From: Escherichia coli
GTDB lineage: Bacteria > Pseudomonadota > Gammaproteobacteria > Enterobacterales > Enterobacteriaceae
Length of the DNA stretch: 43,525 bases
NCBI RefSeq assembly: GCF_003334255.1
Contig: NZ_QOWU01000046.1
Reading direction: 5' to 3' (one strand)
The notes below the pieces were generated by a model. That model was not told the DNA's origin and searched no databases. It saw nothing but the letters and a program-made list of their open reading frames with translations. The position numbers and the translations under genes are program-made. The first letter of the stretch is position 1. Each line of letters opens with the position of its first letter. Positions 7,614 to 8,375 of the stretch are shown in pieces.

Positions 7614-7616
7614 TAT

Positions 7617-8375
7617 TTACTCCATACGCCGGGCAACAATAAACAGACGCGGAAATGCCAGCAGTATCTGTCCGTTCTCTTGCAGTGGATACTGCTCTTC
7701 CAGCATCTGATGGTAGCGCTTAAGAAAAAGCTGCTGTTCGCTCTCGGTCAGATCCTGTAACCACGGACGTAATCCAGTGGCAGTCACCCAATCGATAATC
7801 GCCTGGTGTGACGGCATCTGGTGATAGTAGGTGGTTCGCCAGATATCGACCTCACATCCGGCTTCGCTCAAAATATCGTAGTAAGCATGAACGCCAGCCA
7901 ACGGCTCACGCCCGCGATCCGGGTAGTTTTGTTCCCAGGCAACTTCGCGCATGAGCACATGGGTCGGCTCCAGCCAGTTATCTGGCATCTGTACTGCCAG
8001 CACGCCCTGCGGATTAAGTAAAGAAACCAGATGAGGAAACAATTCGTAGTGGTCGGGCAGCCATTGCAGTGAGGCATTAGCAAAAATCAGATCGAGTGCC
8101 TGTACCGGTTGCCAGTTGCGGATGTCTGCTTCCACGAACTGGCAGTCTGGCAAAGCACTGCGCGCTTCAGCAATCATCGCCGGAGACGAGTCGATGCCTG
8201 TTATCCTGGCCGCAGGCCAACGTTGTTGTAGAAGGGCGGTGCTGTTACCTGGGCCACAGCCAAGATCGGCAACATATTCGACATTTTCCAGCGGCACTCT
8301 GGCAAGCAGCTCCACCGCCGGACGCGATCGTTCAGCGGAAAAGTGTAGATATAAAGAGGGGTTCCAGTCAGACAT
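7617..8375 (-). CDS. tam: Trans-aconitate 2-methyltransferase
   Basis: 252-aa ORF ([29 protein letters not shown]...) with a SAM-methyltransferase motif ([12 protein letters not shown]). Confidence 0.9.

Follow-up and report, generated by a model that had tools for sequence, protein, structure and literature searches.

Introduction

The described systems closest to the locus analysed here are the convergent excludons of Escherichia coli MG1655, 165 of which have been listed with ExcludonFinder (Sanmartin et al. 2025, NAR, PMC12288877). To be listed, a pair must show overlapping transcripts in half or more of 58 RNA-seq data sets; the list is based on coverage only. The pair tam-yneE, the subject of this work, is itself on the list and fits this category in orientation, transcript overlap and RNase III processing. 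The pairs yadE-panD, zapC-ycbX, yccX-tusE, yedP-dgcQ, yedA-vsr, sxy-yccS and yneP-ydeM of MG1655 are likewise convergent and listed. E. coli has 704 convergent pairs (REP-element preprint, bioRxiv 10.64898/2026.03.23.713779), and complementary 3′ ends were found in 276 of 370 convergent operons, with a mean overlap of 286 nt (Conway et al. 2014).

A second related set comes from Huang et al. 2020 (mBio, PMC7373196), who used the dsRNA-binding protein p19, expressed in MG1655, to capture RNase III products for sequencing; two of the duplexes, both of low abundance, come from the tam 3′ end. A third set consists of the bidirectional intrinsic terminators between convergent genes, of which there are 306 in E. 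coli (a figure cited in the REP-element preprint). These systems share the orientation of the two genes, but a stem-loop lies between the genes there, whereas yneE/tam has neither an intergenic element nor a conserved hairpin. In the polymerase collision model of Wang et al. 2022 (bioRxiv 10.1101/2022.10.23.513370), a stem-loop is needed to fix the position.

Here we describe the yneE/tam junction in a window of 43,525 nt, which is the whole stretch of E. coli DNA that was analysed (contig NZ_QOWU01000046.1). We consider it very likely that yneE and tam are an ordinary convergent pair whose spacer has shrunk to 3 nt in Escherichia, which is free of a terminator and whose overlapping transcripts are cut by RNase III. 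The tam-yneE overlap is already published and the layout is common in E. coli; the locus is one more case of convergent E. coli genes that leave no room for a terminator and have RNase III-sensitive overlapping 3′ ends.

Geometry of the yneE/tam junction

The two genes are adjacent and tail to tail, yneE ending at 7613 on the + strand and tam at 7617 on the − strand, which is the orientation of a convergent excludon. The junction comprises the following features.

7611–7613, + strand: stop codon TGA of yneE; the frame reads ...PDRHYQLT-stop
7614–7616: non-coding 3-nt spacer TAT between both stop codons, from translation of both frames and the MG1655 annotation
7617–7619, − strand: stop codon TAA of tam; the frame reads ...FIVARRME-stop
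7617–8375, − strand: tam, encoding trans-aconitate 2-methyltransferase (252 aa), with its ATG at 8373–8375, from the list of open reading frames and the MG1655 annotation

The original prediction had the two stop codons abutting. The tam stop is where it was placed, and the yneE stop lies three bases earlier than the proposed 7614–7616, with the spacer between them. That the genes leave no room for a terminator between them is correct, a spacer of 3 nt being too short. The coding sequences share 0 nucleotides, so the pair is not one of tail-to-tail overlapping genes. In this the junction differs from most of the seven listed pairs named above, which have a 3-nt gap (yadE-panD) or a coding overlap of 4–38 nt and mostly share coding bases. 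The MG1655 RefSeq layout is identical (yneE 3191–4105, + strand; tam 4109–4867, − strand, in locus L001), and alignment of window positions 6600–8400 with MG1655 gives 100% identity except for one deletion. The DNA around the junction is thus K-12-like, and its best matches are various strains of the K-12 type.

The frequency of such tight gaps was gauged from four 50-kb stretches of the MG1655 annotation (199 kb), a small sample and not a genome-wide one, from which all 25 convergent pairs of coding sequences were taken. Their gaps are 215, 34, 42, 70, 37, 201, 40, 3, 73, −4, 69, 75, −38, 31, 44, −4, 114, 43, −4, −12, 107, 261, −35, 3 and 24 nt. Eight of the 25 pairs overlap or have a gap of 3 nt or less, and yadE-panD has the identical 3-nt gap. 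Small as it is, the sample shows that the yneE/tam layout is routine in E. coli and not rarer than chance.

A second convergent pair in the window, yneP/ydeM, lies at about 35584–35618 and is also on the published excludon list; its coding overlap is 35 nt by the MG1655 annotation, from which the coordinates were carried over.

Disruption of yneE

The one deletion falls within yneE and divides the gene as follows.

6791–6966, + strand: N-terminal remnant of yneE, from the native ATG at 6791 through a frameshift past the deletion junction to a TGA at 6964–6966, from the list of open reading frames and alignment with MG1655
6905–6909: junction of the 91-bp deletion, with a single TTTTC left against two flanking TTTTC repeats in MG1655, from the alignment; the junction sequence in the window is GCTGTTATTTTCGTAATAATGCC
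6966–7613, + strand: C-terminal part of yneE in the native frame (bestrophin family, 215 aa), ending at the native TGA, from the list of open reading frames

The suspicion that yneE is disrupted is thereby confirmed: 91 bp of MG1655 sequence between two TTTTC direct repeats are missing, with a frameshift and a premature stop as the outcome. Nothing supports the further idea that a broken yneE makes the arrangement more notable, as the deletion is ~700 nt upstream and the junction is unchanged. A 47-nt query specific for the deletion junction matched none of 5,426 complete E. coli genomes, and a large protein collection has no entry for either of the two possible frameshifted N-terminal peptides (58 and 75 aa); on these grounds, the 91-bp deletion appears to be private to the source of this DNA.

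The premature TGA overlaps an in-frame ATG at 6966–6968, the two forming TGATG at 6964–6968. Translation could restart at this overlap and yield the 215-aa C-terminal YneE fragment. Many assemblies have a called gene for such a 215-aa C-terminal YneE product. In Shigella dysenteriae Sd197 (locus L095) it is preceded by a called fragment of 105 aa, while in loci L090, L092 and L093 the upstream yneE fragment has 88 aa and the distance from fragment start to yneE stop is 914 nt versus 915 in the native gene. The latter value is consistent with a separate single-base frameshift in these three loci, unlike the 91-bp deletion. Judged from these loci, yneE has been inactivated on several separate occasions, always with retention of its 3-nt junction to tam.

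Search for a terminator at the junction

A consensus terminator scan flagged only one site at the junction.

7593–7610, + strand: weak hairpin at the yneE end, CGTCA-8 nt-TGACG, with a 5-bp stem

The hairpin precedes TGATATTTAC on the + strand; read on the − strand, it has a TTTTT run 11 nt beyond it. These T-rich flanks and the call of the scan itself speak for a cryptic bidirectional terminator in the last yneE codons, in which case the transcripts would overlap by a few nucleotides and the overlap would be inconsequential. The properties of the hairpin speak against it. The 5-bp stem closes an 8-nt loop at only −4.6 kcal/mol, a value that becomes −2.2 with the common CGC variant. Specifically, six of seven aligned non-K-12 Escherichia sequences have a synonymous CGT>CGC change (T>C) that removes the middle (third) pair of the stem, and the lineages with a broken stem include O157:H7, E. 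whittamii and E. albertii. Together with published RNA data described below, these properties make a cryptic terminator very improbable.

In addition, the folding z-scores are +0.43 (151 nt, + strand) and +0.25 (191 nt, − strand), which corresponds to no more structure than in shuffled sequence, and an Rfam search of 6000–9000 gave nothing real, the single match having E = 0.77. A bidirectional intrinsic terminator, with a stable G+C-rich stem-loop and a U-tract on both strands, is thus not seen at the junction. The weak unconserved hairpin, the null z-scores and the lack of an Rfam match together indicate that a functional intrinsic terminator is absent from the yneE/tam junction.

Overlap of the yneE and tam transcripts

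The original prediction held that transcripts read through into the opposing gene and overlap in antisense, and this is supported by the sequence and by published MG1655 experiments, namely the p19-captured duplexes and the ExcludonFinder list. The published overlap data come from strains with an intact yneE (MG1655), unlike the strain of the window. The ExcludonFinder call for tam-yneE is almost forced by geometry, being close to automatic for a pair with a 3-nt gap. The duplexes give information at the level of single nucleotides; their Table S3 sequences (PMC7373196) map onto the window as one site.

7616–7641, both strands: p19-captured RNase III dsRNA site

Table S3 reports perfectly paired 21-nt duplexes with 2-nt overhangs, both strands of which were recovered, and its two tam entries have 7.6/3.0 and 2.5/3.1 RPM (PMC7373196). 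Mapped to the window, the small RNAs of the + strand (yneE direction) occupy 7618–7638 and 7621–7641, and those of the − strand (tam direction) 7616–7636 and 7619–7639. From the + strand small RNAs it follows that RNA in the yneE direction runs at least 28 nt past its stop; in MG1655, this RNA crosses the spacer, reaches into the last tam codons and is paired with tam mRNA. The same + strand small RNAs lie 8–31 nt downstream of the hairpin at 7593–7610, hence polymerase passes the hairpin, and a terminator there is largely refuted. The published MG1655 data thus contain both transcript overlap and RNase III processing of the duplex, the latter as attributed by Huang et al.

The nucleotide-level evidence for overlap concerns the yneE-to-tam direction only. 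For the opposite direction, gene-level counts are available. Across six data sets, p19 dsRNA reads amount to 38–256 RPM for tam and 41–437 RPM for yneE, and to 4–10 RPM for the neighbour uxaB and 4–43 RPM for the neighbour lsrF (Table S1b, PMC7373196). In total RNA of the wild type, tam has 71.7 RPM sense and 3.4 RPM antisense, and the two yneE strands have 11.3 and 19.4 RPM, the strand label of yneE being in conflict between Tables S1b and S1c (Table S1c, PMC7373196). Whichever value is sense, both yneE strands are transcribed at similar levels. These gene-level counts suggest that transcription in the tam direction also enters yneE. In the available part of the cluster tables of Huang et al. 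2020, which hold clusters of at least 2,000 reads per 200 bp, the names tam and yneE were not found.

Evolution of the junction

The 3-nt gap is common to MG1655, four diverse E. coli lineages (identity down to 95.7%) and one further divergent E. coli; E. whittamii, E. albertii and S. dysenteriae share it. The nine aligned Escherichia junctions contain 0 indels; the spacer reads TAT, TAA, CAA or CTT, and yneE ends with either TGA or TAA. This constant spacer length across Escherichia could reflect some constraint.

Outside Escherichia, 77 further yneE loci were examined. Where tam was found downstream, it lies 44–1585 nt from yneE, with extra genes between the two in some genera. Specifically, Citrobacter sedlakii has a convergent tam at 44 nt from yneE, and the distance is 182 nt in Yokenella, 199 nt or about 606 nt in Pluralibacter and about 1585 nt in Lelliottia; in other Citrobacter it is 505–977 nt, and the interval holds a 125-aa gene, an acetyltransferase-like gene or the two together. 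In most loci of Enterobacter, Kluyvera, Kosakonia and Buttiauxella, tam does not occur in the 2.5 kb downstream of yneE.

Citrobacter, Yokenella, Pluralibacter and Lelliottia, whose two genes stand far apart, have conserved the YneE C-terminus (HYQLT-stop) and the Tam C-terminus; therefore both stops are real and their near-abutment is a derived state of Escherichia. Most simply, the tight junction would have arisen in Escherichia by loss of intervening DNA. The same conservation decides against an annotation artefact, that is, one frame ending earlier and leaving a normal intergenic region, and we rejected this reading, for which nothing was found to speak, as having almost no credibility.

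Two loci, L091 and L094 (E. coli ED1a and a second strain), lack the lsr operon. In L094, tam still adjoins yneE, with hipBA beyond; in L091, tam is gone too. By these two arrangements, tam is not strictly tied to the lsr operon.

Is the overlap a regulatory device?

The overlap might instead be a selected regulatory device, a true excludon in which transcription of each gene lowers expression of the other, by RNase III cutting the duplex and by colliding polymerases, so that yneE and tam are expressed in a mutually exclusive manner. Such a device would account for dsRNA that is formed and cut at the junction, for the place of the pair in the published excludome and for a 3-nt spacing that is constant across Escherichia, E. 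albertii included. Against it, the duplex reads are modest (2.5–7.6 RPM), about one-third of the sampled convergent pairs are just as tight, so that tightness alone is no sign of selection, and in other genera the spacing is very different or the pairing is absent. Furthermore, no anticorrelated expression of tam and yneE is on record, and yneE has been lost as a pseudogene both here and in S. dysenteriae while tam was kept intact. On balance, a selected device is unlikely, and a working switch that couples the stationary-phase methyltransferase Tam to the bestrophin-family yneE is slightly more doubtful still. Such a switch, if true, would imply that the loss of yneE translation in the present strain, by the 91-bp deletion and possible Rho polarity, measurably changes tam expression.

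For yneE and tam as an ordinary convergent pair, we propose the following course of events. Intergenic DNA would have been reduced to 3 nt in the Escherichia lineage. With no terminator between or within the gene ends, polymerase leaving yneE would enter the tam 3′ end and polymerase leaving tam would enter yneE; the complementary 3′ regions would then pair, and RNase III would cut the duplex, as shown for MG1655. The overlap would most likely be a by-product of spacer loss, and its effect on two weakly expressed genes would be small at most. In the strain of the window, yneE is also a pseudogene by way of its apparently private deletion, with the junction unaltered.

Transcript ends and the stopping of read-through

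Around the junction, at ~1,607,300–1,609,000 of U00096.3, the curated Term-seq data of Adams et al. 2021 (PMC7815308) show neither a 3′ end nor a Rho region, which also counts against a terminator in the last yneE codons. In this reference, the genes have the following coordinates.

About 1,607,346–1,608,104 of U00096.3: tam
1,608,108–1,609,022 of U00096.3: yneE

The blank at the junction fits low expression, diffuse ends or both. In a simple C/G profile around the junction, the C/G ratio is 0.5–1.6 in 80-nt windows, and no strong C-rich, G-poor Rho-loading region occurs over some 600 nt to each side. On general grounds, the most likely stopping mechanism would still be Rho, acting on the part of the read-through RNA that is not translated. 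By analogy with the described convergent systems, it is plausible that head-on polymerase collision contributes to stopping read-through at yneE/tam. Read-through would thus probably end diffusely, by Rho on untranslated RNA, by head-on collisions or by both.

The disrupted yneE may modify this process. Beyond the premature stop, ~650 nt of yneE RNA would be untranslated, which could bring about Rho polarity and lessen yneE-direction read-through into tam; a restart at TGATG could counter such polarity. A strain with a translationally dead yneE could reveal whether Rho polarity alters the antisense pressure on a partner gene. More generally, with a 3-nt spacer, no hairpin and two dispensable genes, yneE/tam could be used as a clean natural test case for how polymerase stops without a terminator.

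The only nearby Term-seq entry of Adams et al. 2021 is an "orphan" RNA 3′ end, a strong one, at position 1609037 of U00096.3 (− strand), in the uxaB-yneE intergenic region. It corresponds to about position 6776 of the window, 15 nt upstream of the yneE ATG at 6791, and Rfam gives no family for it. This end could belong to a 5′-UTR attenuator or to a small RNA.

Other differences from MG1655 in the window

Besides the 91-bp deletion, the window lacks a further 467 bp of MG1655 sequence at about 25210–25211, around the ydeT and helix-turn-helix pseudogenes. The best 12 of 5,304 matching E. coli records match in two pieces only, so that none of these 12 shares the 467-bp deletion. At about 21589–21596, the window has 7 G versus 8 in MG1655, inside an autotransporter pseudogene that is marked as frameshifted in the MG1655 record. 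Positions 1–77 belong to one end of an IS1; this element sits between ptrR and yneK, where MG1655 has none. An IS1 at the same place occurs in a few E. coli strains, with 97.5% identity across window positions 1–400, IS1 end and flank together. Single-base differences from MG1655 number 12 across the 43.5-kb window.
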